A DNA stretch of 64,000 bases, taken from positions 57,474,001-57,538,000 of the forward strand of contig OZ024746.1 of the NCBI GenBank assembly GCA_964016885.1, given 5' to 3'. The notes below the pieces were generated by a model. That model ran no database searches and was not told the origin of the DNA. It saw only the letters and a program-made list of their open reading frames with translations. This DNA comes from Eledone cirrhosa (lineage: Eukaryota). This document shows, one piece after another, positions 3,264-57,954 of this stretch (positions are counted from its first letter, which is position 1; every line of letters starts with the position of its first letter). The position numbers were made by a program, and so were the translations under genes.

Positions 3264-4377
<1,114 letters not shown>

Positions 4378-15736: not shown

Positions 15737-15819
15737 ATATAGATATAGATATAGATATATATAAATGTAAGTATGTGAGTATACGTACATACATATATGT
15801 ATACAGACGTACAGTACCA

Positions 15820-15873
<54 letters not shown>

Positions 15874-16027
15874 CATACAGGTACACATACATATATGCAC
15901 GCATCAGTGTAGCGGACGCTTATTATAACGCCGCTTTGTTCGATTGTCAACAAACTGAACAGCCTGGATTTATACCGTACTGTGTTAAGGCAACCACGTC
16001 ACCTTTTTGTTCAACACTGACACAGGA

Positions 16028-16070
16028 ACGATGTACTAGTTTCAAGCTTGTTAGCTATCATCAGCACCGT
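16028..16070 (-). ncRNA. Type I hammerhead ribozyme (family A)
   Basis: Reverse complement of 16143-16185. Confidence 0.88.
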
Positions 16071-16142
16071 TTACCCATCTGCCAGTACCCATCTGCCAGA
16101 TAGTTGAACTTTCGAACGTTCAACTATCTGGCAGATGGGTAA

Positions 16143-16185
16143 ACGGTGCTGATGATAGCTAACAAGCTTGAAACTAGTACATCGT
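16143..16185 (+). ncRNA. Type I hammerhead ribozyme (family A)
   Basis: ACGGTG-CTGATGA-T-AGCT-AACA-AGCT-T-GAAA-CTAG-TA-CATCGT; GUA triplet, palindromic stem III ACTAGT. Confidence 0.9.
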
Positions 16186-16351
16186 TCCTGTGTCAGTGTT
16201 GAACAAAAAGGTGACGTGGTTGCCTTAACACCGTATGGCATAAATTCAGGCTGTTCAGTTTGTTGACAAACGAACAAAGCGGCGTTATAATAAGCGTCCG
16301 CTACACTGATGCGTGCATATATGTATGTGTACCTGTATGTATATATGTATA

Positions 16352-16417
<66 letters not shown>

Positions 16418-16579
16418 TGCTACTGTACGTCAGTATACATATATGTATGTACGTATACACACATACTGACATTTAAGTAAGTGCCATACTAAGAGTGAGA
16501 AATGAAATTTCGTTTTCATTTTTTTCAACTTATATATATATAGATATATATATATATATATATATATATAGATAGATAT

Positions 16580-16916: not shown

Positions 16917-16974
16917 CTTTACTTGCTAACATTGTTTCATCCGCACTATAAGCGGGACTCATCAGAGCATAAAG
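16917..16974 (-). ncRNA. Type I hammerhead ribozyme
   Basis: Inverted copy of 20178-20235. Confidence 0.82.
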
Positions 16975-17583
16975 GTTAATTACATACCATATAAGCAATA
17001 ACAAATCCAAGACATTGAAGAATGAAAAATAATAGAAGATAAAGGATATTAAGGAAGTAAAAGTAAAAATAAGAATAAAAATAAAAATAAAAATAAAAAT
17101 AAAAATAAAAATAAAATAATAAAATAAACAATGAAAAATAAAGGGTGCTATCAGTCACAGTTGGGCGGGGTGCTGTCAACATATAGTTACATACAAGCAT
17201 ACACATGGATAAGAGAACAGACAAGAGTAGATAAGATAGATAGGATTAGGTAAGAGTAGGTAAAAAATAGGTGAAAAACAGACTTATAATATATATAAGA
17301 AAATATAAAGAAATATATAACAAACTTACATATAAAATATAAAATATACAGATAATAGTAATACAGGGTAAGGAATGAAATAAAATAATATATAATTAAA
17401 ATTAAAATTATATAAAATAGAACATAATATAATATAATCATAAAATAAGATAAAATAAGGTAAACTAAAATAAAATAAAATAGACTAAAGTAAAATAATA
17501 TAATATAAGATATAATTAAATGTAATTAAATAAATAAATAAATAAATAAATAAAATTAAATAAAATTAAAATTAAAATTAAAT

Positions 17584-17623
<40 letters not shown>

Positions 17624-19536
17624 ATGAAATTAAATAAGTAAATAAATAAAATTAGATAAAATGAAATGAAATAAAATAAAATAAAATAAAATGAAATAAA
17701 GTAAATTGAGATAAGATATATATTTTTCTAGAATATGTCTCTTGAATATATCAGGGGCCCACGAAGGCACTAAGTGTCACAGTTATCTGTATCACTTGAC
17801 CATTTTTTAAAAATATATTTCTTGAAAATATCAGGGGCCCACGAAGGCACTAAGTGTCACAGTCAGCAGTATCACTTGACCATTGCAAGGCAATGGAGGC
17901 GTCCCAGGTTGGGCAGTCTCAAAAGTTCACTCGAAAGTCACGGGTGTGCATTCACACAGTTGAGCGGTGGGGTAATCACAAACCGGTTCACACCCGGACA
18001 GGAGTCCAATGGTCAAAGAGAGGTGCATCGAAGGAAGGTTGGAGAATTCACGTGCAGTAGCAAGCGAGGTGCAGGCGGGTTAGCCAAAGCAAGCAGACAC
18101 AGTTGGAGCGCATACAAAAGATATATAAAAAGACAAAAAATATATAAAAAATAGCTTCAAGAGCCATGAATTCACCGCATTGGGACATCACAAGATTGTA
18201 CACATCAATATGTTCAGCACGTATATGCACATATACACACCACATGCATATGCAGAGACGGTATACATATATATATATATATTTTTTTTTATATACAGAC
18301 ATATACAACCACCTACACCCATACACATATAAATGTATACACAGACACACACGCACACACACACAGCGTAGGACACCCGGGTCAAAGCTGATATTAAACA
18401 CCGAAATACCACATTTGGCAAGACCCACCACCACGGATAATACATTCAAAATAAATACATACGATGAGATGTAGTAAAATAAAGTTGAATTCCTACGGAG
18501 ATAATCATGTCCGCACGTGCCATTGCCCGATTCAAGTGTACACTTGAATCGGGCAATGTTATATATTTCTTTATATTTACTTATATATATTATAAGTCTG
18601 TTTTTCACCTATTTTTTACCTACTCTTACCTAATCCTATCTATCTTATCTACTCTTTATTTTACTACATCTCATCGTATGTATTTATTTTGAATGTATTA
18701 TCCGTGGTGGTGGGTCTTGCCTAATGTGGTATTTCGGTGTTTAATATCAGCTTTGACCCGGGTGTCCTACGCTGTGTGTGTGTGCGTGTGTGTCTGTGTA
18801 TACATTTATATGTGTATGGGTGTAGGTGGTTGTATATGTCTGTATATAAAAATATATATATATATGTATACCGTCTCTGCATATGCATGTGGTGTGTATA
18901 TGTGCATCTACGTGCTGAACATATTGATGTGTACAATCTTGTGATGTCCCAATGCGGTGAATTCATGGCTCTTGAAGCTATTTTTTATATATCTTTTGTC
19001 TTTTTATATATCTTTTGTATGCGCTCCAACTGTGTCTGCTTGCTTTGGCTAACCCGCCTGCACCTCGCTTGCTACTGCACGTGAATTCTCCAACCTTCCT
19101 TCGATGCACCTCTCTTTGACCATTGGACTCCTGCCCGGGTGTGAACCGGTTTGTGATTACCCCACCGCTCAACTGTGTGAATGCACACCCGTGACTTTCG
19201 AGTGAACTTTTGAGACTGCCCAACCTGGGACGCCTCCATTGCCTTGCAATGGTCAAGTGATACTGCTGACTGTGACACTTAGTGCCTTCGTGGGCCCCTG
19301 ATATTTTCAAGAAATATATTTTTAAAAAATGGTCAAGTGATACAGATAACTGTGACACTTAGTGCCTTCGTGGGCCCCTGATATATTCAAGAGACATATT
19401 CTAAAAAAATATATATCTTATCTCAATTTACTTTATTTCATTTTATTTTATTTTATTTTATTTCATTTCATTTTATCTAATTTTATTTATTTACTTATTT
19501 AATTTCATTTATTTATTTATTTATTTATTTATTTAC

Positions 19537-19568
<32 letters not shown>

Positions 19569-19598
19569 ATTTAATTTTAATTTTAATTTTATTTAATT

Positions 19599-19638
<40 letters not shown>

Positions 19639-20177
19639 TTACATTTAATTATATCTTATATTATATTATTTTACTTTAGTCTATTTTATTTTATTTTAGT
19701 TTACCTTATTTTATCTTATTTTATGATTATATTATATTATGTTCTATTTTATATAATTTTAAGTTTAATTTTATATTATTTTATTTCATTCCTTACCCTG
19801 TATCACTATTATCTGTATATTTTATATTTTATATGTAAGTTTGTTATATATTTCTTTATATTTTCTTATATATATTATAAGTCTGTTTTTCACCTATTTT
19901 TTACCTACTCTTACCTAATCCTATCTATCTTATCTACTCTTGTCTGTTCTCTTATACATGTGTATGCTTGTATGTAACTATATGTTGACAGCACCCCGCC
20001 CAACTGTGACTGATAGCACCCCTTATTTTTCATTGTTTATTTTATTATTTTATTTTTATTTTTATTTTTATTTTTATTCTTATTTTTACTTTTACTTCCT
20101 TAATATCCTTTATCTTCTATTATTTTTCATTCTTCAATGTCTTGGATTTGTTATTGCTTATATGGTATGTAATTAAC

Positions 20178-20235
20178 CTTTATGCTCTGATGAGTCCCAC
20201 TTATAGTGCGGATGAAACAATGTTAGCAAGTAAAG
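20178..20235 (+). ncRNA. Type I hammerhead ribozyme
   Basis: CTTTA-TGCT-CTGATGA-GTCCCACTTATAGTGCGGAT-GAAA-CAATG-TT-AGCA-ag-TAAAG. Confidence 0.85.
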
Positions 20236-20381
20236 ATATGCATATGCTATAGGCGTTCTTTGTTATTTATTATATCACGGCTCTGTCCTCAGACATCGAG
20301 CTAACCTTATACTGCCTGCTGGATAAGTGGAGTGTTATACACCCCTGATCCTCTCCCTAGTATACTATATATATATATATA

Positions 20382-22280: not shown

Positions 22281-22545
<265 letters not shown>

Positions 22546-29734: not shown

Positions 29735-29830
29735 CAGGATTTTTTCATTCTGAGGATTGAAAGCAAAACCTTTTGCTTTTAAGAAACCACTGGTAAATGG
29801 AATAATTGCCTTATGTTGTTTATTACATAA
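29735..29830 (+). mobile_element. Solo pseudo-LTR of the Naiad-type PLE with minimal HHR (29742-29786)
   Basis: Matches 56740-56840; CTGAGGA-TT-GAAA-GCAAAACCTTTTGC-TT. Confidence 0.8.
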
Positions 29831-45117: not shown

Positions 45118-45176
<59 letters not shown>

Positions 45177-45244
45177 TGTTATACTTTGGGAGGGTCATCT
45201 TGCCAATAGGAAACACACGCACCAGTTGCTTTCACTTCAATTTA

Positions 45245-46085
45245 TTATAATACATTTATAAATTTAGGAATTTATAAATGTCCGGTTCGTTGGTTGGTTC
45301 CACAACCAGATGGTTGTTTATATATTGTCAAAGTACTTTCGTCACACATTATGTGACTTCTTGAGTGACTTGGGATTCTTTTCTTCGTTTTTGTGCCTCT
45401 CCGTTGTTCTGTCCTACGCCATTTTGTTTCTGTGTGTGTGTTGACTGCTCAGTCTGCGCATGCGTCACATCTAGGTGTCTGTGTTTGTTTATATTCGTTT
45501 ATTTATTTGTTTATTTACATGTTACAGGTTGGTTGTTCGTTCCATGTGCGTGTGTGTGTTTCATTTAGTCTGTAATTGTAAGTTGTGATGTTGCTGTTCC
45601 ACTCATGTTTTCTATTTAATTTTGGTTGTAATTCTTTTATGTTTATTGCCTCTGTGATTTGTCTAAACATTGCGTCTTTTCTGTGTGTAGATTCTATTTT
45701 TATTTCTCTGTTCTCTAATTTACCCTTATGTTCTATTTTAGAATGTTGGTAGAGTACAGATGATTCTTTACTATCTTGAAGGTCTCGCCAGTGTTCATTT
45801 ATCCGTTCCCCTACACTACGAGCTGTCTCACCTATGTACACTATATTTTTGTCCCTACATTGTCCTTCAGTACATCTTATGCTATATACTACATTTCTAG
45901 CTTTACGGTTAATATGGGGATTAATTTACAGGTTATACATTTCTTATCTATACAGGGGGTCTTTGAAAAGGTTATATCTTGCTAATAAGTGTTTTTTTAC
46001 GGAGGTACCTGGTCTTTCTACTACCTTAATATTGAGTTTCTGTTTATCTAGGGCCCTTCTAATTTTGTAAGCTAATTAACCTCCA
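45245..46085 (-). mobile_element. Penelope-like element 3' part: GIY-YIG endonuclease + 3' repeat with HHR remnant (45327-45369)
   Basis: YIGETARSVGERINEH..RQITEAINIKELQPKLNRKHEW; GTCA-CTCAAGA-A-GTCACA..TGTGAC-GAAA-GTAC-TT-TGAC. Confidence 0.9.
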
Positions 46086-46089
46086 CTAG

Positions 46090-46983
46090 TTAAAACACCC
46101 CCACTAGAGAACAGTCAGAAATTAGAGAAAAACACAATGGAAAGCATCCAGCAAATAGCTAACTCCATCCACCAGAGTAATAGAGTTACTATAGACTACC
46201 AAAGTAAACACCCCAACCATCGATTACCTGTACTAGACACAGAACTCTGGTTAGATACCATTAATAACAAAAAAACAAATACTCCATTCCCATTATGCCA
46301 AACCCATGACTTCCAAATATCTGATCAACCGAAACTCAGCTGTTTCGGACCATACTAAAATCAACATACTGATTGCGGGTGTGGTACGGGTGATGAGAAA
46401 CGTGTCCCGCATGTGCAATCCCGAAGAACTAGAGAGACAGATACAACATTTTGTCCACCGTATGCAGGTCTCTGGTTACAATCAGAGAGATAAAATCAGA
46501 GTGTATAGAGGAGCCAGAACCAAATGGGAAAAAATGGTACATAATGACACAAATGGGCCCTGCCCCTTGTAAGGAGCACATTTTGGAATAGAATAGAAAG
46601 AACTAGGAATAAGGCTAATAGAATAAACTCATGGTATGATAGCAATAAATACCAGAGTGTAATGTTCATCGATACAACCCCTAGAGGTGAATTAGCTTAC
46701 AAATTTAGAAGGGCCCTAGATAAACATAAACTCAATATTAAGATAGTAGAAAGACCAGGTACCTCCGTAAAAACTCTTATTAGCAAGACACACCCATTTC
46801 AAAGCCCCCCCTGTATAGATAAGAAATGTATAACCTGTAAATTAAGCCCCCATATTAACTGTAAAGCTAGAAATATAGTATATAGCATAAGATGTACTGA
46901 AGGACAATGTAGGGACAAAAATATAGTGTACATAAGTGAGACAGCTCGTAGTGTAGGGGAACGGATAAATGAACACTGGCGAA
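46090..46983 (+). pseudogene. Penelope-like RT thumb/linker/GIY-YIG start, inverted relative to the adjacent copy
   Basis: LPVLDTELW, YAKPMTS, C-rich linker, IVYSIRC..YISETARS; frameshifts; 46683-46983 is the reverse complement of ~45786-46084. Confidence 0.9.
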
Positions 46984-47636
46984 TCGTAAAAGCACATATC
47001 GTTATATGCTTTTTCTATGAAAATTAGTAGTGGGCAGACTAATTTGCATAGAGTGTGAGTAAGTACCGGTTCAACGGAGACGATAAAAACAAATAACGAA
47101 ACGAAATTAAATTTCGTTTCGTTTGTAACTCACTTTTGTATGACGAAATTTAATTTCGTTTCGTTATTTGTTTTTATCGTCTCCGTTGAACCGGTACTTA
47201 CTCACACTCTATGCAAATTAGTCTGCCCACTACTAATTTTCATAGAAAAAGCATATAACGATATGTGCTTTTACGATTCTCTAGAAAGGCCGGAAGATAG
47301 GTAAATATTGCTGATGAGTTGTAACAACAACGAAACTAGTTCAATATTCCTTGTCTGGCTTTCTGGAGAATAGAGGAAAGGTGTTTCCTCAAAAACCAGT
47401 ATGACTCTAAAAACCGGTTTGTCTGTGTGTTTACATACAGAATAGCTGGCCACTCACAGTAAAGTGACCAGTGAAAAAACTTGGTACATCTACATATGTA
47501 TACGTGTGTGTATTCATATACATACTAGTATTTCAGTATACATATATGGATGTACATCTTTAACTTAATTGTTTAAGCGTCAGTCATACAAAAGTGAGTT
47601 ACAAACGAAACGAAATTTAATTTCGTTTCGTTATTT

Positions 47637-47640
<4 letters not shown>
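46981..47640 (+). mobile_element. Retrozyme-like family A' element: inverted arm + 467-bp monomer + ~30-bp terminal repeat
   Basis: ACGAAATTTAATTTCGTTTCGTTATTTGTT at 47143 and 47610; 46981-47118 inverted vs 47143-47279. Confidence 0.9.
47304..47348 (+). ncRNA. Canonical type I hammerhead ribozyme
   Basis: AATATTG-CTGATGA-GTTGT-AACA-ACAAC-GAAA-CTAG-TT-CAATATT; all core positions intact, perfect stems I and II. Confidence 0.93.
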
Positions 47641-49807: not shown

Positions 49808-50072
49808 AAATAGTAATAACAAAAATAAATTTGAAGACTAAAATCCAAAGGGCTCGATAAGGATAAATATATATCAAATAGATAAGAACCGTAGAGCAAA
49901 TATTTATTAAAATAACAGATTAAAGTTTAAGCAAAGCACCGCTGCTTTCACACTTAACGGGATCTTCTGAAAGTAAAAAAGTAAATCATTAAGATTGACT
50001 TTTTCAGTTTCAAAAGATCCCGTTAAGGGTGAAAGCCGCGATTCTTTGCTTAGACTTTAATCTGTTATTTTA

Positions 50073-50080
<8 letters not shown>
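49808..50080. mobile_element. Fold-back family B, second copy
   Basis: Homologous to 8456-8720 in the opposite orientation. Confidence 0.8.
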
Positions 50081-50118
<38 letters not shown>

Positions 50119-50220
50119 AGATTAATATCTCCACAGGTACTAAGTACCCATGAAAATATATAGGGTAACTATAATACATTTGTTGTTTAATGGTATTAAT
50201 TTGACATACCAGAACTATAA

Positions 50221-50600
50221 AATTGAGATGAGTGGAACAAGAAAACATTAAACAATCTTTTAAATAAATTAAAATACGATTTAATTATTTACGTATCCAA
50301 AATGCTATTACCGACGGTTTCATTTCACAAAAGATTGGAAATCCAGAGAATTTCCAACGCAAAGGTTCACTTTAACGGCCTGACCTCATACTAGCTGGCA
50401 GTAGGCGATATATTTATAAACTGTGAGACTTTACGTCCTATAGAATGGAAAGAGCTATCTGAGGAGGAAATTCTCTGGATTTCCAATCTTTTGTGAAGCG
50501 AAACCGTCGGTAATAGCATTTTGGATAGGTAAATATTTAAATCGTATTTTAATTCATTTAAAAGATTGTTTAATGTTTACTTGTTCCGCTCATCTCAATT
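50221..50600. mobile_element. Fold-back element (135-bp arms) with HHR at 50454-50517 (+)
   Basis: Arms 50221-50355 / 50466-50600; GCTAT-CTGAGGA-G...C-GAAA-CCGTCGG-TA-ATAGC. Confidence 0.8.
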
Positions 50601-50620
50601 ATATATATATATATATATAA

Positions 50621-50733
50621 GTTGAAATAAAATGAAAACGAAATTTCATTTCTCACTCTTAGTACGGCACTTACTTAAATGTAAGTATGTATGTATACGT
50701 ACATACATATATGTATACAGACGTACAGTAGCA

Positions 50734-50795
<62 letters not shown>

Positions 50796-51230
50796 CAGGT
50801 ACACATACATATATGCACGTATCAGTTTAGTGGACGCTTATTATAACGCCGCTTTGCTCGTTTGTAAACAAACTGAACAGCCTGATTTTATGCCGTACGG
50901 TGTTAAGGCAACCACGTCACCTTTTTGTTCAACACTGACACAGGAACGATGTACTAGTTTCAAGCTTGTTAGCTATCATCAGCACCGTATACCCTTCTGC
51001 CAGATAGTTGAACGTTCGAAAGTATATACTTTCCTTATGAAAATTAACGGCTGAGCAGCCTAATTTACATAACGAGTGAGTTAAGTCGGGCAGGCATACC
51101 GAAAACGATAAGTTGAAATAAAATGAAAACGAAATTTCATTTCTCACTCTTAGTACGGCACTTACTTAAATGTAAGTATGTATGTATACGTACATACATA
51201 TATGTATACAGGCGTACAGTAGCATGCATA

Positions 51231-51266
<36 letters not shown>

Positions 51267-51824
51267 CAGGTACACATACATATATGCACGTATCAGTTTA
51301 GCCGACGCTTATTATAACGCCGCTTTGTTCGTTTGTAAACAAACTGGACATCCTGAATTTATGCCGTAGGGTGTTAAGGCAACCACGTCACCTTTTTGTT
51401 CAACACTGACACAGGAACGATGTACTAGTTTCAAGCTTGTTAGCTATCATCAGCACCGTATACCCTTCTGCCAGATAGTTGCACGTTCGAAAGTATATAC
51501 TTTCCTTATGAAAATTAACGGCTGAGCAGCCTAATTTGCATATCGAGTGAGTTAAGTCGGTCAGGCATACCGAAAACGATAAGTTGAAATAAAATGAAAA
51601 CGAAATTTCGAAAGTTCAACTATCTGCCAGAAGGGTATACGGTGCCGATGATAGCTAACAAGCTTGAAACTAGTACATCGTTCCTGTGTCAGTGTTGAAC
51701 AAAAAGGTGACGTGGTTGCCTTAACACCGTACGGCATAAATCCAGGCTGTTCAGTTTGTTTACAAACGAACAAAGCGGCGTTATAATAAGCGTCCGCTAA
51801 ACTGATACGTGCATATATGTGTAC

Positions 51825-51899
<75 letters not shown>

Positions 51900-51957
51900 G
51901 CATGCTACTGTACGTCTGTATACATATATGTATGTACGTATACATACATACTTACAT
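50621..51957. mobile_element. Family A array: two tandem monomers (491 and 471 bp, minus sense) + short repeat + inverted copy
   Basis: GTTGAAATAAAATGAAAACG at 50621, 51112 and 51583; HHRs at 50946-50988 (-), 51417-51459 (-), 51639-51681 (+, core CCGATGA). Confidence 0.92.
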
Positions 51958-51974
51958 ATATATATATATATATA

Positions 51975-52970: not shown

Positions 52971-55900
52971 CACATACACATACATACACATACATACTTA
53001 CTAACATACACCTATATACCTACACACACATATATACATACACATACGTATGCATACGTACACACACACACACACACATATACATATATAACTCAATATA
53101 TATATATATATATATATATGAGAAAGAACAAAAATAATATAAAATAAAAAATAAATATTTTATATATAAAAAAATTTGACAAGTAGTAAATAAAAAAATA
53201 TATATATATGTATATATTTCGAAAAGGGTATACATGCCCATAGCAGACCTAGAGCACTCAATAAGTTCATGGGGCAAAAGATCAATGAAATATTCATCAA
53301 ATCATTATATATAAAGATGCACATACATACACCCTAATACAATTATACATATACACACACACATACACACAGTCACATAAAATTGTATACATACACACAC
53401 ACACACACAAAAACCCCAACCACAGAAATACAAACACACATAGAAAAACGTATATATACATATATATATATCTATATATACACACACATAGGAAGAAGCC
53501 TGACCCTATTGCATAGCTCAGGCCTTTTCTGAGGCTATGATATAAAAACACACAAAACCATTATATAAAAACTTAATATCTAAAAATAAAAAAAATGTTG
53601 GTTTGTGAAGGGTAAGGCAAAAATAGGGGGTAAAAGGAGGGGGAAAAATGACATAGGAAAAGGTTTAAATATAAGGGGAAATATGGGAGAAAGAGAATAC
53701 AAGAGTACAGAACCTGGATTCAGCAGGTAAAAAAAACCCTAGTAGAAGTAAAGAGCAGAGAAGGAGTTCAAGGCGGTTGAGTTATCATAGGAATGTTAAT
53801 CCAGTTACAGATCAGATGTGATTTCAGATGAGGACAACATCTGAAGATCTTGGTCTTTGAGTTCAGGCAAGCAGAAGTAGCTTTCAAGTTTAGCAAAATT
53901 TTATATTTTTCTGTGGTACACAAAGAACAATTCTTTGTGCCCCTTTGGTACTCCCTCGAAAGGTCTAAAATAGAACAATCGATAGAGTACGGGATGTTTT
54001 TATCCTTGAATTCCCACACCTTACTTGCGAGGGCCGTTGTTGTTCGTTTATCGGAGTGCTTAAAAGAAGCGACATGTGAGTAAAACCTGGTTTTAAACCT
54101 GTCCTGGGTCATGCCGACATATCGCTCACTCCTGGCTGTCTGGTTGTTGATTAAAGCTGTTATTTTAGCCTCATAAACAACAGATTTGGTGTTACATTTG
54201 CCCTGCAATGGGCATTCATCCGGCTTCCTGCAACTGCATCCTGGATTTGTTCTCGTATGATTTGAATTGGTGATCTTGGACTTCATAGATGGGCAACAAG
54301 AGTAACTGATCTTAACTACGTTCCTATTAAATATCTTATAATATCTATGATTAGGAGGAAAATGTTTATCTAAGAGTTCAAGGAATTTCCTTCCTACATT
54401 AGTTTTGACAGTTAGAGAGAAGGGGGGGGTGTAAACCAAATCATTTTCCTTTTCCTGTTATTGTGGTTAGTTTTAGAGGGGCGAGTAGGTAAATAATAAA
54501 TGTGTTCAGTTAAACCGCTGTTCTTAAGGGCTTTATTATAATAAGGGGCGGCTTTATTAAAAATGTCTATAGACGAAGATAAGGTAGAAATCCTACAGCT
54601 AATGTTGGGAATAAGATTATTAAAAACTATAGTGGGGTGGTAAGACACTTTGTGTATATGCCTAAGACTTTCATTCGCTTTATGATAAGGTTTAAAAGAG
54701 GCGGTAAGTAGATCAAGAGTAATATCAAGAAAGTTAGCATTGGTAAGGTTCATATCTATAGTGATTTAAAGGTTAAGATTAGCAAAGGTATTGATTAAAT
54801 ATTTACGGAATTTATCAAGGTTATGGCCGTTGGTGATATGAGAAACTGACAATCCGTCATCACGGTATAAACCGATATTATGGGAAGGAAATTTCTCTTT
54901 GAGGGTGTGGAGAAGGAATAATCCTACTAAGTCACACACATCCGCACTGTCATATGAACCCATTGCAACATAAAAAAGAGTTTTCTGTGTTTGACTTTTT
55001 AACCCAAATATTTTCATTAGTAAAGAGTAAAGTTTTTCTAGCATGAAAGATAATGTCTTTTTCTAATTTAGAAATATTAATGAAGGGTCTTGTAAACTCT
55101 AAGGCATTAATTAATAAGGAAACAGTAATAGAGGGGTAAAAATCAACAATATCAAATTGGGTAAATCTACACTTATTTTTACCTTGTATATTATTAAACC
55201 AAGAAAAAACAGAGGAAGTATTTAGCCACTGTGATAGGTCAGTCTTAGTTCTAATTTGGAGAATTATTTTTCTTAAGATTTTTTTTACTTGCAAAGCCAA
55301 CTTAGGATTTAGCCTGGTTAATCAGTCTACAACTAGGTCGATTAGTAAAGTCTACTTTATGGTCTTTAAGGGTAATATATACTTTACTCTTAGCTAAGCT
55401 TTCAATCCGGTTGTCTATTTTTAAAGAACTAGCTAGTTCTTTAGCTTCTTTATTAATAGTATTGTAAGTATTATTATTAGTTAATTGATATTTGTTGGTG
55501 ATACTATTAGTTAAAAGTTTGTTATACAAAGTACTATTAACTTCAAAGAGATTTTTAGTTTTATCAGAAAGAACAAAGGTGTTTGTAGAATTTTTAAAAT
55601 AAGAAATATCTTTAGACAGTTTAGTTTGAAAGTTATTATTGTACTTACGAAATTTGATATCACTAATTAAATTAACAATGTCTAATTCGAAGTTGACCAT
55701 GTCTTTAATTCTAGGTGGATATTTACGGGATTCTATGTCAAAACAATCATTAGTATCAACACTGAATAGTCCATCGTAAACCATTGCCTTCCATCTCATT
55801 CTTTTAACGACTTGTTCGATTTTATCTATAAGAATTTTGGTATAATTTGTGTTGGAAGGAGTAGGTATATTTTTGATTGAATAATCCAATTCATAAAGGT

Positions 55901-56325
55901 CCATGGTGTATGTCGGTTAATTCCTGAAAACTGTAGAGTGCTCAACTAATCGGGCTGGAAAGTGCCTATCGTATATGTAATATAGAATATGCTTCAATCA
56001 ATCCCCGTTGGAGTTGTATAAATGAAGTAATTCCTACGGAAAAGTCCAGGAAGAAAGAGTGCTCTATGTAGGTAACAGAGCTTAATAGTTATGTAATAAA
56101 CTACATAAGGCAATTATTCAATTTACCAGTGGTTTCTTAAAAGCAAACAATTTTGATTTCAATCATCAGAAAGAAAAAATCCTGGTCTATTTATTGAATT
56201 GGATTTTTAAAAAACAAAAATGCAGTCTATATGAAAGTGAGGCTGGAGAAGGAAGAAGGAAAGGAAAATTAAATAAAAACACACATGCAAACACGCACAC
56301 ACACACACACGATTATATACACCAC

Positions 56326-56615: not shown

Positions 56616-56834
56616 GTGGATGTATATAATCGTGTGTGTTTGCATGTGTGTTTTTATTTTATTTGTCCTTTCCTTCTCCAGCCTCACTTTCATATAGACT
56701 GCATTTTTGGGGTTTTTTAAATCCAATTCAATAAATAGACCAGGATTTTTTCCATTCTGATGATTGAAAGCAATTTTTTTTGCTTTTAAGAAACCACTGG
56801 TAAATGGAATAATTGCCTTATGTTGTTTATTACA

Positions 56835-56840: not shown

Positions 56841-56910
<70 letters not shown>

Positions 56911-57034
56911 TATATGGATGTATATATAATGTATTTTGCAATACACTTTATGCTTAATTAAAAGCATTTTGAAGACCGTATGCTATTGCTTTAGAGTAGT
57001 GACAAATTCACTAACTTTAATCTCAGGAAACAGG

Positions 57035-57095
57035 GGAGATAAGCCGACAAGGCCTTGTTTCGCATTTATTGATGCTTATCAAGGCTAACTACTCC
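57035..57095 (-). ncRNA. Type I hammerhead, U3-A8 variant
   Basis: GGAG-tagtt-AGCC-TTGATAA-GCAT-CAATAA-ATGC-GAAA-CAAGGCCTTG-TC-GGCT-tat-CTCC. Confidence 0.85.
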
Positions 57096-57352
57096 GTCCT
57101 GTCTACCGAGATCACTGATTTTATATTCTTTTAGAATTCTAGTAAATAATCAGGAACTGATTATACAGAGCGGTTGTTGGTCAGGCAGAAATTAAAAATT
57201 AGAATTGGAGCTCTGAAATAGCAATATATATATGGATGTATATATAATGTATTTTGCAATATACTTTATTCTTAATTAAAAGCATTTTGAAGACCGTATG
57301 CTATTGTTTTAGAGTAGTGACAAATTCACTTAATTTAATCTCAGCAAACAGG

Positions 57353-57413
57353 GGAGATAAGCCGACAAGGCCTTGTTTCGCATTTATTGATGCTTATCAA
57401 GGCTAACTACTCC
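57353..57413 (-). ncRNA. Type I hammerhead, U3-A8 variant (second tandem copy)
   Basis: Identical motif to 57035-57095. Confidence 0.85.
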
Positions 57414-57527
57414 CTCCCTCCTAATTTTTAATTTCTGCCTGACCAACAACCTCTCAGTATAATCAGTTCCTGATTATTTACTAGAATTCTATAAGAATAT
57501 AACATCAGTGATCTCGGTAGACAGGAA

Positions 57528-57588
57528 GGAGTAGTTAGCCTTAATAAGCATCAATAAATGCGAAACAAGGCCTTGTCGGCTTATCTCC
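57528..57588 (+). ncRNA. Inverted copy of the family H hammerhead with core mutation (TTAATAA)
   Basis: Same stems; G5 changed to A. Confidence 0.7.
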
Positions 57589-57954
57589 CCTGTTTGCTGA
57601 GATTAAAGTAAGTGAATGTGTCACTACTCTAAAACAATAGCATACGGTCTTCAAAATGCTTTTAATTAAGCATAAAGTGTATTGCAAAATACATTATATA
57701 TACATCCATATATATATTGCTATTTCAGAGCTCCAATTTTAATATATATATATTGCTTCACCATTTTGTTTCTTTTCCCTCGCGTCCCCTTTATTTACGT
57801 GTCCCAACGACTTTTTTTAGCCGTTGCTCGCACCAACCGGAGGTATATGGTCTTTAAAGCGATGAAATGCCTATGAAGGTTGGAAGATCACTGATGAAGG
57901 ACAAACTTTTTTCATATGTAACCCATTTGCAACTCCGCAGCGCCCTTATTATCA

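Follow-up and report, generated by a model that had tools for sequence, protein, structure and literature searches.

A high-copy hammerhead repeat in the genome of Eledone cirrhosa with a PLE-type insertion footprint

The closest described systems to the repeat reported here are the animal non-LTR retrozymes and the endonuclease-bearing Penelope-like elements (PLEs). For retrozymes, RNA circles have been shown in coral, mussel and axolotl (Cervera and de la Pena 2020; PMC7229834), and mobilisation from the circle by PLEs was proposed both in that paper and in a 2026 preprint by Li et al. (bioRxiv 10.64898/2026.07.22.740005). In the available text of both sources, the spread of retrozymes as PLE-copied RNA circles is an assumption, proposed rather than shown. 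The preprint also links Xenopus retrozymes to pLTRs by phylogeny, and reports that 8 of 9 Xenopus dimers tested did not cleave. On the side of the PLEs, in vitro work with a PLE protein found AT-rich DNA to be nicked and extended on both strands, and the tail to be defined by two internal start sites of the reverse transcriptase on the RNA (PMC11167929). In the same work, ribozyme cleavage was not needed for PAc insertion, uncut RNA being the main substrate. Dimer hammerheads have also been described, as have pairs of motifs on opposite strands 100–700 bp apart (PMC4209133).

We analyzed a window of 64,000 nucleotides (contig OZ024746.1, 57,474,001–57,538,000) from the genome of E. cirrhosa, which is 3.0 Gb in size and rich in TA microsatellites. 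The feature under study, a member of what we call family A, lies at window positions 50620–51957 and consists of two head-to-tail units (491 and 471 nt) and an opposite-strand arm, all within a (TA)n tract. A sequence-only reading of the window had located this array correctly to 1 nt, and had described it as two monomers with intact hammerheads followed by an inverted copy. The two monomers are as it described them, with the core CUGAUGA at 50982 and 51453 on the minus strand. The opposite-strand arm (51606–51957) is present as well, but it is only a partial copy and its core has changed. In what follows, q1–471 denotes positions along unit 2, the reference unit, on the minus strand.

The locus is bordered on its left by a (TA)n target microsatellite (50600–50619). 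Unit 1 (50620–51110, minus strand) has its 3′ end at 50620, and this is the long end (q471), which carries a 59-nt tail (q413–471; 50620–50678, minus strand) with an AAUGAAA/UUUCAUU hairpin; the tail is one-sided, as the other arm is without it. This unit contains an internal variable (TA)n (50737–50795) and a first type I hammerhead (50946–50988, minus strand) with a predicted cut after 50952. Unit 2 (51111–51581, minus strand) likewise has an internal (TA)n (51228–51266), in line with what had been claimed of the monomer, and a second type I hammerhead (51417–51459, minus strand) with a predicted cut after 51423. The inner end of the left arm is formed by 28 nt of a 5′-truncated third unit (q444–471; 51582–51609, minus strand), which shares a 4-nt overlap, or microhomology, at the inversion junction (51606–51609) with the inverted, 5′-truncated arm (q90–412, plus strand). 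The hammerhead of this arm (51639–51681, plus strand) has the core change U4C (CCGAUGA), and the arm ends at the short end, in the loop of an ACUUAC/GUAAGU hairpin, where it meets the right (TA)n target microsatellite (51958–51974).

One arm represents ~2.1 turns of the unit and the other 0.7. The changes at this locus are all unit-specific (7, 5 and 4; ~1.5% each), and because of this we consider it an older insertion, and one that cannot discriminate between models of the template. The unit is non-coding, its open frames (142 and 152 aa) being short ones that include (TA), and has a GC content of 39% outside the TA tract. Two fold-back elements were observed just to the left of the insertion, one at 50216–50605 with 140-nt arms (94%) and a second at 49900–50080 with 88-nt arms (90%); these may be MITE-like or small PLE-type inversions.

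The tandem-unit hammerheads are made up of stem I (ACGGUG/CAUCGU), CUGAUGA, a 4-bp stem II, GAAA and a palindromic ACUAGU helix III, with stem II sitting under a U.U mismatch and an AACA loop. A 32-nt motif had five matches in the window versus none in 100 shuffles. The Rfam scan of the window gave no match at gathering thresholds, and the hammerhead call therefore rests on the motif scan and on covariation. The covariation first put forward was a change in stem I, where a G-U pair is exchanged for U-G in another subfamily. That swap exists, but it is a single wobble change between two subfamilies and weak by itself. The copy at 3806 in which it was noted (ACGTTG/CAGCGT) carries a swap that is real and subfamily-wide, but the core of that copy is broken (GACA for GAAA, CUAUUA for CUAGUA). 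Better evidence came from a check across sister families, in which 11 of 17 pairs had double changes (14 distinct rows of a 16-row alignment), a level reached by 0 of 500 shuffles; the rows are related, with changes mostly from sister families B and C, and the shuffle count is not to be read as a probability. The predicted hammerhead fold is supported, more by the sister families than by the single wobble swap.

The predicted cuts (GUA↓C) after 50952 and 51423 are 471 nt apart, which agrees with the monomer length given earlier, and their spacing defines a predicted cut-to-cut monomer RNA of 471 nt (50952–51422, minus strand) that was folded as a circle, its presumed form. The terminal AATGAAA/TTTCATT hairpin was likewise recovered, with a fold z of -3.2 for the 101-nt end region. 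The short end is in a hairpin loop and the long end lies just past this terminal hairpin; covariation is scarce in these parts of the unit. A count of 0 of 68 inherited changes in the ribozyme was discarded as a sign of conservation since it is circular, the loci having been picked by exact ribozyme match.

A high copy number had been expected from the presence of four loci in 64 kb, and those four were all found (3470–4377, 15762–16530, 22377–22544 and 50620–51957). Genome-wide, the exact ribozyme 37-mer occurs 10,333 times, with 0 occurrences of the control, and family A loci are dispersed on many contigs. The earlier interpretation, that of a high-copy hammerhead repeat predicted to be able to release a 471-nt monomer, is supported. 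Other structured repeats were noted in the window. A ~3.3-kb non-coding fold-back (16917–20272), whose two ends have unlike type I hammerheads (at 16965, minus strand, and at 20187, plus strand), is nested directly against the family A locus at 15762–16530. Hammerhead-like motifs of other families occur at 29750, 56757, 58684 and 6708, that at 56757 being near an inverted repeat (56908–57715).

Family A has a subfamily, A2, which includes the 3806 copy and for which 40 of 1,472 candidates were scored, all at least 95% identical. The U-G/G-U swap in stem I is general in A2, cores are mostly intact, and copies other than that at 3806 combine the swap with an intact core, although the counts behind this statement on cores were not de-duplicated for overlapping loci and are of qualitative use only. 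A sister family, B, is represented in the window at 47178–47639, where it aligns to family A along the whole unit, and has 7,983 motif matches in the genome. At 47003–47639 its unit is 466–470 nt long, with a hammerhead at 47311 (GUU↓C), and family B arrays have up to 31 units, some perfectly identical. With stem II left free, full pairing (GUUGU/ACAAC or GAUGU/ACAUC) was seen in 99 of the 100 family B matches listed, many of which share an array with others. Family C has a 310-nt unit and the ribozyme plan of A (U.U, an AAUA loop and a palindromic helix III); we noted one family C array (L157:4986–6094) that directly adjoins a family A array. When an additional family with different stem II pairing was sought, the genome gave 376 matches, and the 100 matches listed were decayed A copies. 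Contigs of four runs were compared with window 51290–51581: those of organism A had the letters of the family and of the subfamily, and those of organisms B and C matched less well; matches to such contigs cannot show ends, strand or circles.

Within family B, a sub-lineage (L220, L270–L274) was observed to have three A>G changes that abolish the octamer-like word ATGCAAAT; its arrays, present at several loci, are very long and perfectly identical. These three changes may have originated by RNA editing. In a separate comparison, an editing signature was sought and was not significant, the ratio of A>G to T>C being 17:8 in subfamily variants (p 0.07), 5:2 in private shared changes and 43:53 in singletons. 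Newt satellite 2 has an snRNA-type promoter. A promoter of this type is unsupported for family A, in that ATGCAAAT at q41 had no significant likeness to three U2 upstream regions, themselves without a conserved octamer; the comparison is a weak one.

The mode of insertion was analyzed in 99 loci. Merging gave 92 insertions, of which 86 are complete in that no locus edge cuts them. The sources were the 30 best matches to the window unit, together with 30 loci and 39 stretches behind the first 100 exact matches on C1, and the sample is biased in that loci from exact matches force one intact ribozyme per locus. Two arms, back to back, were present in 48 of the 86 complete insertions. Their 3′ ends are at two fixed sites ~59 nt apart, one per arm: 31 of the 48 are short/long, no short/short or long/long pair occurs, and in the other 17 an end is damaged or lies in the TA tract. 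Overall, 61 of 135 3′ ends fall at q460–471, 49 at q405–417, 16 in the internal TA tract and 9 elsewhere, and (TA)3+ follows within 4 nt in 115 of the 135, which is part of the basis for calling 50600–50619 a target. Family B has mixed short/long pairs in 15 of 17 cases, and subfamily A2 has the two 3′ ends of family A. The inner ends are scattered and unrelated between arms, and 23 of 38 inversion junctions have a 1–5 nt overlap. Adjacent junctions in the style of L1 twin priming were considered and rejected: the inner ends are within 20 nt of each other in 3 of 38 cases, and 3689 of 5000 shuffles gave values as high.

The insertion footprint published for PLEs combines a tandem and an inversion within (TA)n and a tail on one side, and this was missed in the sequence-only reading. 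Partial tandems with an inverted, 5′-truncated copy, the one-sided tail and the AT-rich or microsatellite target are all found in family A, whose two-armed footprint matches the PLE features as listed in the available text of PMC8557442. Also found are the attributes of a non-LTR retrozyme, namely two or more successive tandem units that each bear a complete type I hammerhead, a short, non-coding, low-GC unit, many dispersed copies, and a hammerhead fold kept by compensatory change. The RT and GIY-YIG ORF that marks an autonomous PLE is absent from the unit, and none is located inside family A copies in the fetched loci. We are therefore confident, although short of certain, that the two-armed insertion of this non-coding hammerhead repeat is a PLE-mobilised retrozyme.

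An internal control for this footprint is provided by a coding PLE family in the same genome. It has an RT and, at the C terminus, a GIY-YIG domain in a 995-aa open frame with a CxxxxCxxC linker; the domain matches (RVT_1, E 2.4e-4; GIY-YIG, E 2.2e-4) are both under Pfam's cut-off, and a comparison of the ORF with solved structures gave no match. Judged by the description in the available text of PMC8557442, the family would be of the Neptune/Nematis type. Its copies end in (TA)n at two sites ~58 nt apart, with a footprint as in family A. Of 32 ends, 18 were scored as short and 14 as long, with one mis-scored variant and one tandem read-through among them, and one locus (L079) has one short and one long end on opposite arms. 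In the window, a two-armed fragment of this family (45170–46982) has its own hammerhead and 3′ ends ~58 nt apart; open frames of up to 995–1246 aa are found elsewhere in the genome. The fragment, which ends at non-canonical points, is fused to family B at 46980–47003; the fusion reads best as a deletion between two neighbouring insertions.

Could this family supply the enzyme? BLAST of A and B against 89 PLE loci, obtained from three protein/family searches in a genome that holds more PLE families than were sampled in this way, found no shared pLTR except in nested A copies, and for this reason we regard the RT-GIY-YIG family as a candidate partner only. The window also contains a broken PLE-like ORF (53768–55916, minus strand) with a C-terminal nuclease, presumably Hydra-like from its look, for which there are 57,095 first-look candidates in the genome.

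Evidence on the template comes from the uniformity of units within arrays. The divergence between units is 0.7% within insertions (160 pairs) versus 3.5% between insertions (1,711 pairs). For markers found in at least five insertions, every unit carries the marker in 260 of 286 cases, and the two arms agree in 127 of 136. In one young sub-lineage, whose marker has 254 copies, the first 100 matches include 12 arrays; their median unit lengths range between 469 and 522 nt, and unit lengths deviate by a median of 1 nt from their own array versus 11 nt overall (p 3.5e-7; 66 spacings, with those of 700 nt or more dropped). The unit length is common to both arms in three of four measurable arrays, the fourth being noisy, and at the family B locus L220, 18 of 18 units are identical over both arms. 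Only 1 of 139 inner ends is at the cut site (q155–165), and 184 of 185 units run across the cut site with no indel, although the search forced one intact ribozyme per locus. The low divergence within insertions, the fixed markers, the array-own lengths and the absence of scars at the cut site together speak for a single closed monomer that was copied repeatedly, and the template was probably a circular RNA of the predicted 471-nt monomer.

The same PLE machinery could instead have copied an uncut linear multimer transcript of a tandem donor, with the uniformity due to uniform donors and later homogenisation; the hammerhead would then not be needed. This explanation, which we think unlikely but deserving of weight, accounts equally well for the two 3′ ends, the inverted arm and the lack of scars at the cut site, and is in keeping with the finding that ribozyme mutants still insert and that the main substrate is unprocessed RNA (PMC11167929). 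Searches for locus-private haplotypes at L220, L157 and L159 found none that was private. The L220 marker is in 69 units at 7 places, and full units at three other chromosomal loci equal the L220 units except for one 1-nt insertion, while the L157 marker is in 254 units and the L159 marker in 10 units at 5 places. As identical haplotypes recur at several loci, a uniform donor array also fits. In addition, the arrays L014 (family A) and L221/L222 (family B) are mosaics, which points to later DNA-level expansion in some arrays. What a linear multimer explains less well is that young sub-lineage arrays mostly have a unit length of their own, common to both arms; array-wide fixation of markers would require repeated single-unit bottlenecks, and double changes between families preserve the hammerhead fold. 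Also observed was a cluster of family A arrays (L013–L015, at G000:C4:212.9 Mb) that are long and heterogeneous and in which unit haplotypes recur; it suggests satellite-like expansion after insertion.

A cut linear monomer, on which the RT would produce tandem copies by jumps that return it from the 5′ end to the 3′ end, would give an equal single-unit bottleneck. However, template jumps usually add or lose bases, and with nearly all junctions free of indels and truncations not piled at the cut site, we consider this very doubtful. A DNA-level repeat (a minisatellite, fold-back or rolling-circle DNA element) recombining among TA tracts, with the ribozyme incidental or a relic, is the least probable explanation and hardly credible, for although recombination could start from the (TA)n inside and beside the units, and later duplications are present in some arrays (L014), the paired 3′ ends, scattered 5′ truncations and microhomology inversions match PLE retrotransposition (PMC8557442), the coding PLE of this genome has a matching footprint, and there is covariation in the RNA stems.

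For the copying of a closed monomer, we hypothesize the following series of events. A tandem donor would be transcribed and neighbouring hammerheads would cut out one unit, likely as hammerhead dimers formed via the palindromic ACUAGU helix III, after which a host ligase would close the excised unit into a circle. A PLE protein would nick both strands of a (TA)n microsatellite, the target in which the insertions are found. Each DNA end would then prime cDNA at either of two fixed positions on the RNA, in the loop of the small hairpin (q412–415) or at the foot of the terminal hairpin (q471), giving the observed pattern of one short and one tailed arm. Each polymerase would round the RNA for anything from a fraction of a turn to many turns, and the two cDNAs would join back to back at unrelated points, mostly via microhomology of 1–5 nt, as is seen at the junctions. 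The full proposal, in which a PLE RT-endonuclease dimer primes both cut (TA)n ends on one ribozyme-made circle, such that the insertion is a clonal print and its internal (TA)n a barcode of the template, is one toward which we lean slightly.

Judged from its sequence, family A is a new family within a known kind, the animal non-LTR retrozymes, with a PLE footprint. In the literature searched we found no account of family A or of paired two-end retrozyme insertions, and the family may be catalogued in Repbase/Dfam or in supplements; the words “inverted”, “target site” and “microsatellite” are absent from the main text of PMC7229834, and paired two-end insertions are not described in the available text of bioRxiv 10.64898/2026.07.22.740005. 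The gain is one more well-documented case of a known kind of element and an extra argument, that of the barcode. Family A yields footprints that can be counted (paired start sites, per-array unit length and scar-free cut sites), and the in vitro PLE assay that already exists could use its unit as a defined substrate of 471 nt on which two start sites are mapped.

Like the animal non-LTR retrozymes described in PMC7229834 and bioRxiv 10.64898/2026.07.22.740005, family A has short non-coding tandem units with canonical type I hammerheads, a low GC content and thousands of dispersed copies. It shares with axolotl HHR_Amex2 (PMC7229834) the U.U mismatch at the base of helix II. The 471-nt unit, with its internal (TA)n, is larger than the 170–400 nt circles of PMC7229834 and within the 51–972 bp range of the preprint. 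Homology to pLTRs, which the preprint gives for 24 of 57 Xenopus families, was not found for family A among the 89 loci.

The endonuclease-bearing PLEs (PMC8557442; PMC11167929; PMC4209133) share with family A the partial tandems, the 5′-truncated copy that lies inverted at the 5′ end, a tail confined to one end, targets that are AT-rich or (TA)n and a hammerhead in the repeat. Family A differs from them in having no ORF and a tail of ~59 nt rather than the published 30–40, a length that resembles that of the coding RT-GIY-YIG family of this genome. Arrays of whole short units, which extend to 16 or more units in family A and 31 in family B, are also unlike those PLEs as described in the available text, and the hammerhead of family A is canonical with a palindromic helix III, whereas that of the PLEs is minimal. 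The hammerhead satellites of newt (satellite 2), schistosomes and crickets are also tandem type I repeats likely to cleave as dimers (PMC7229834, PMC4209133); they form large satellites, whereas family A occurs as dispersed, short, two-armed insertions.
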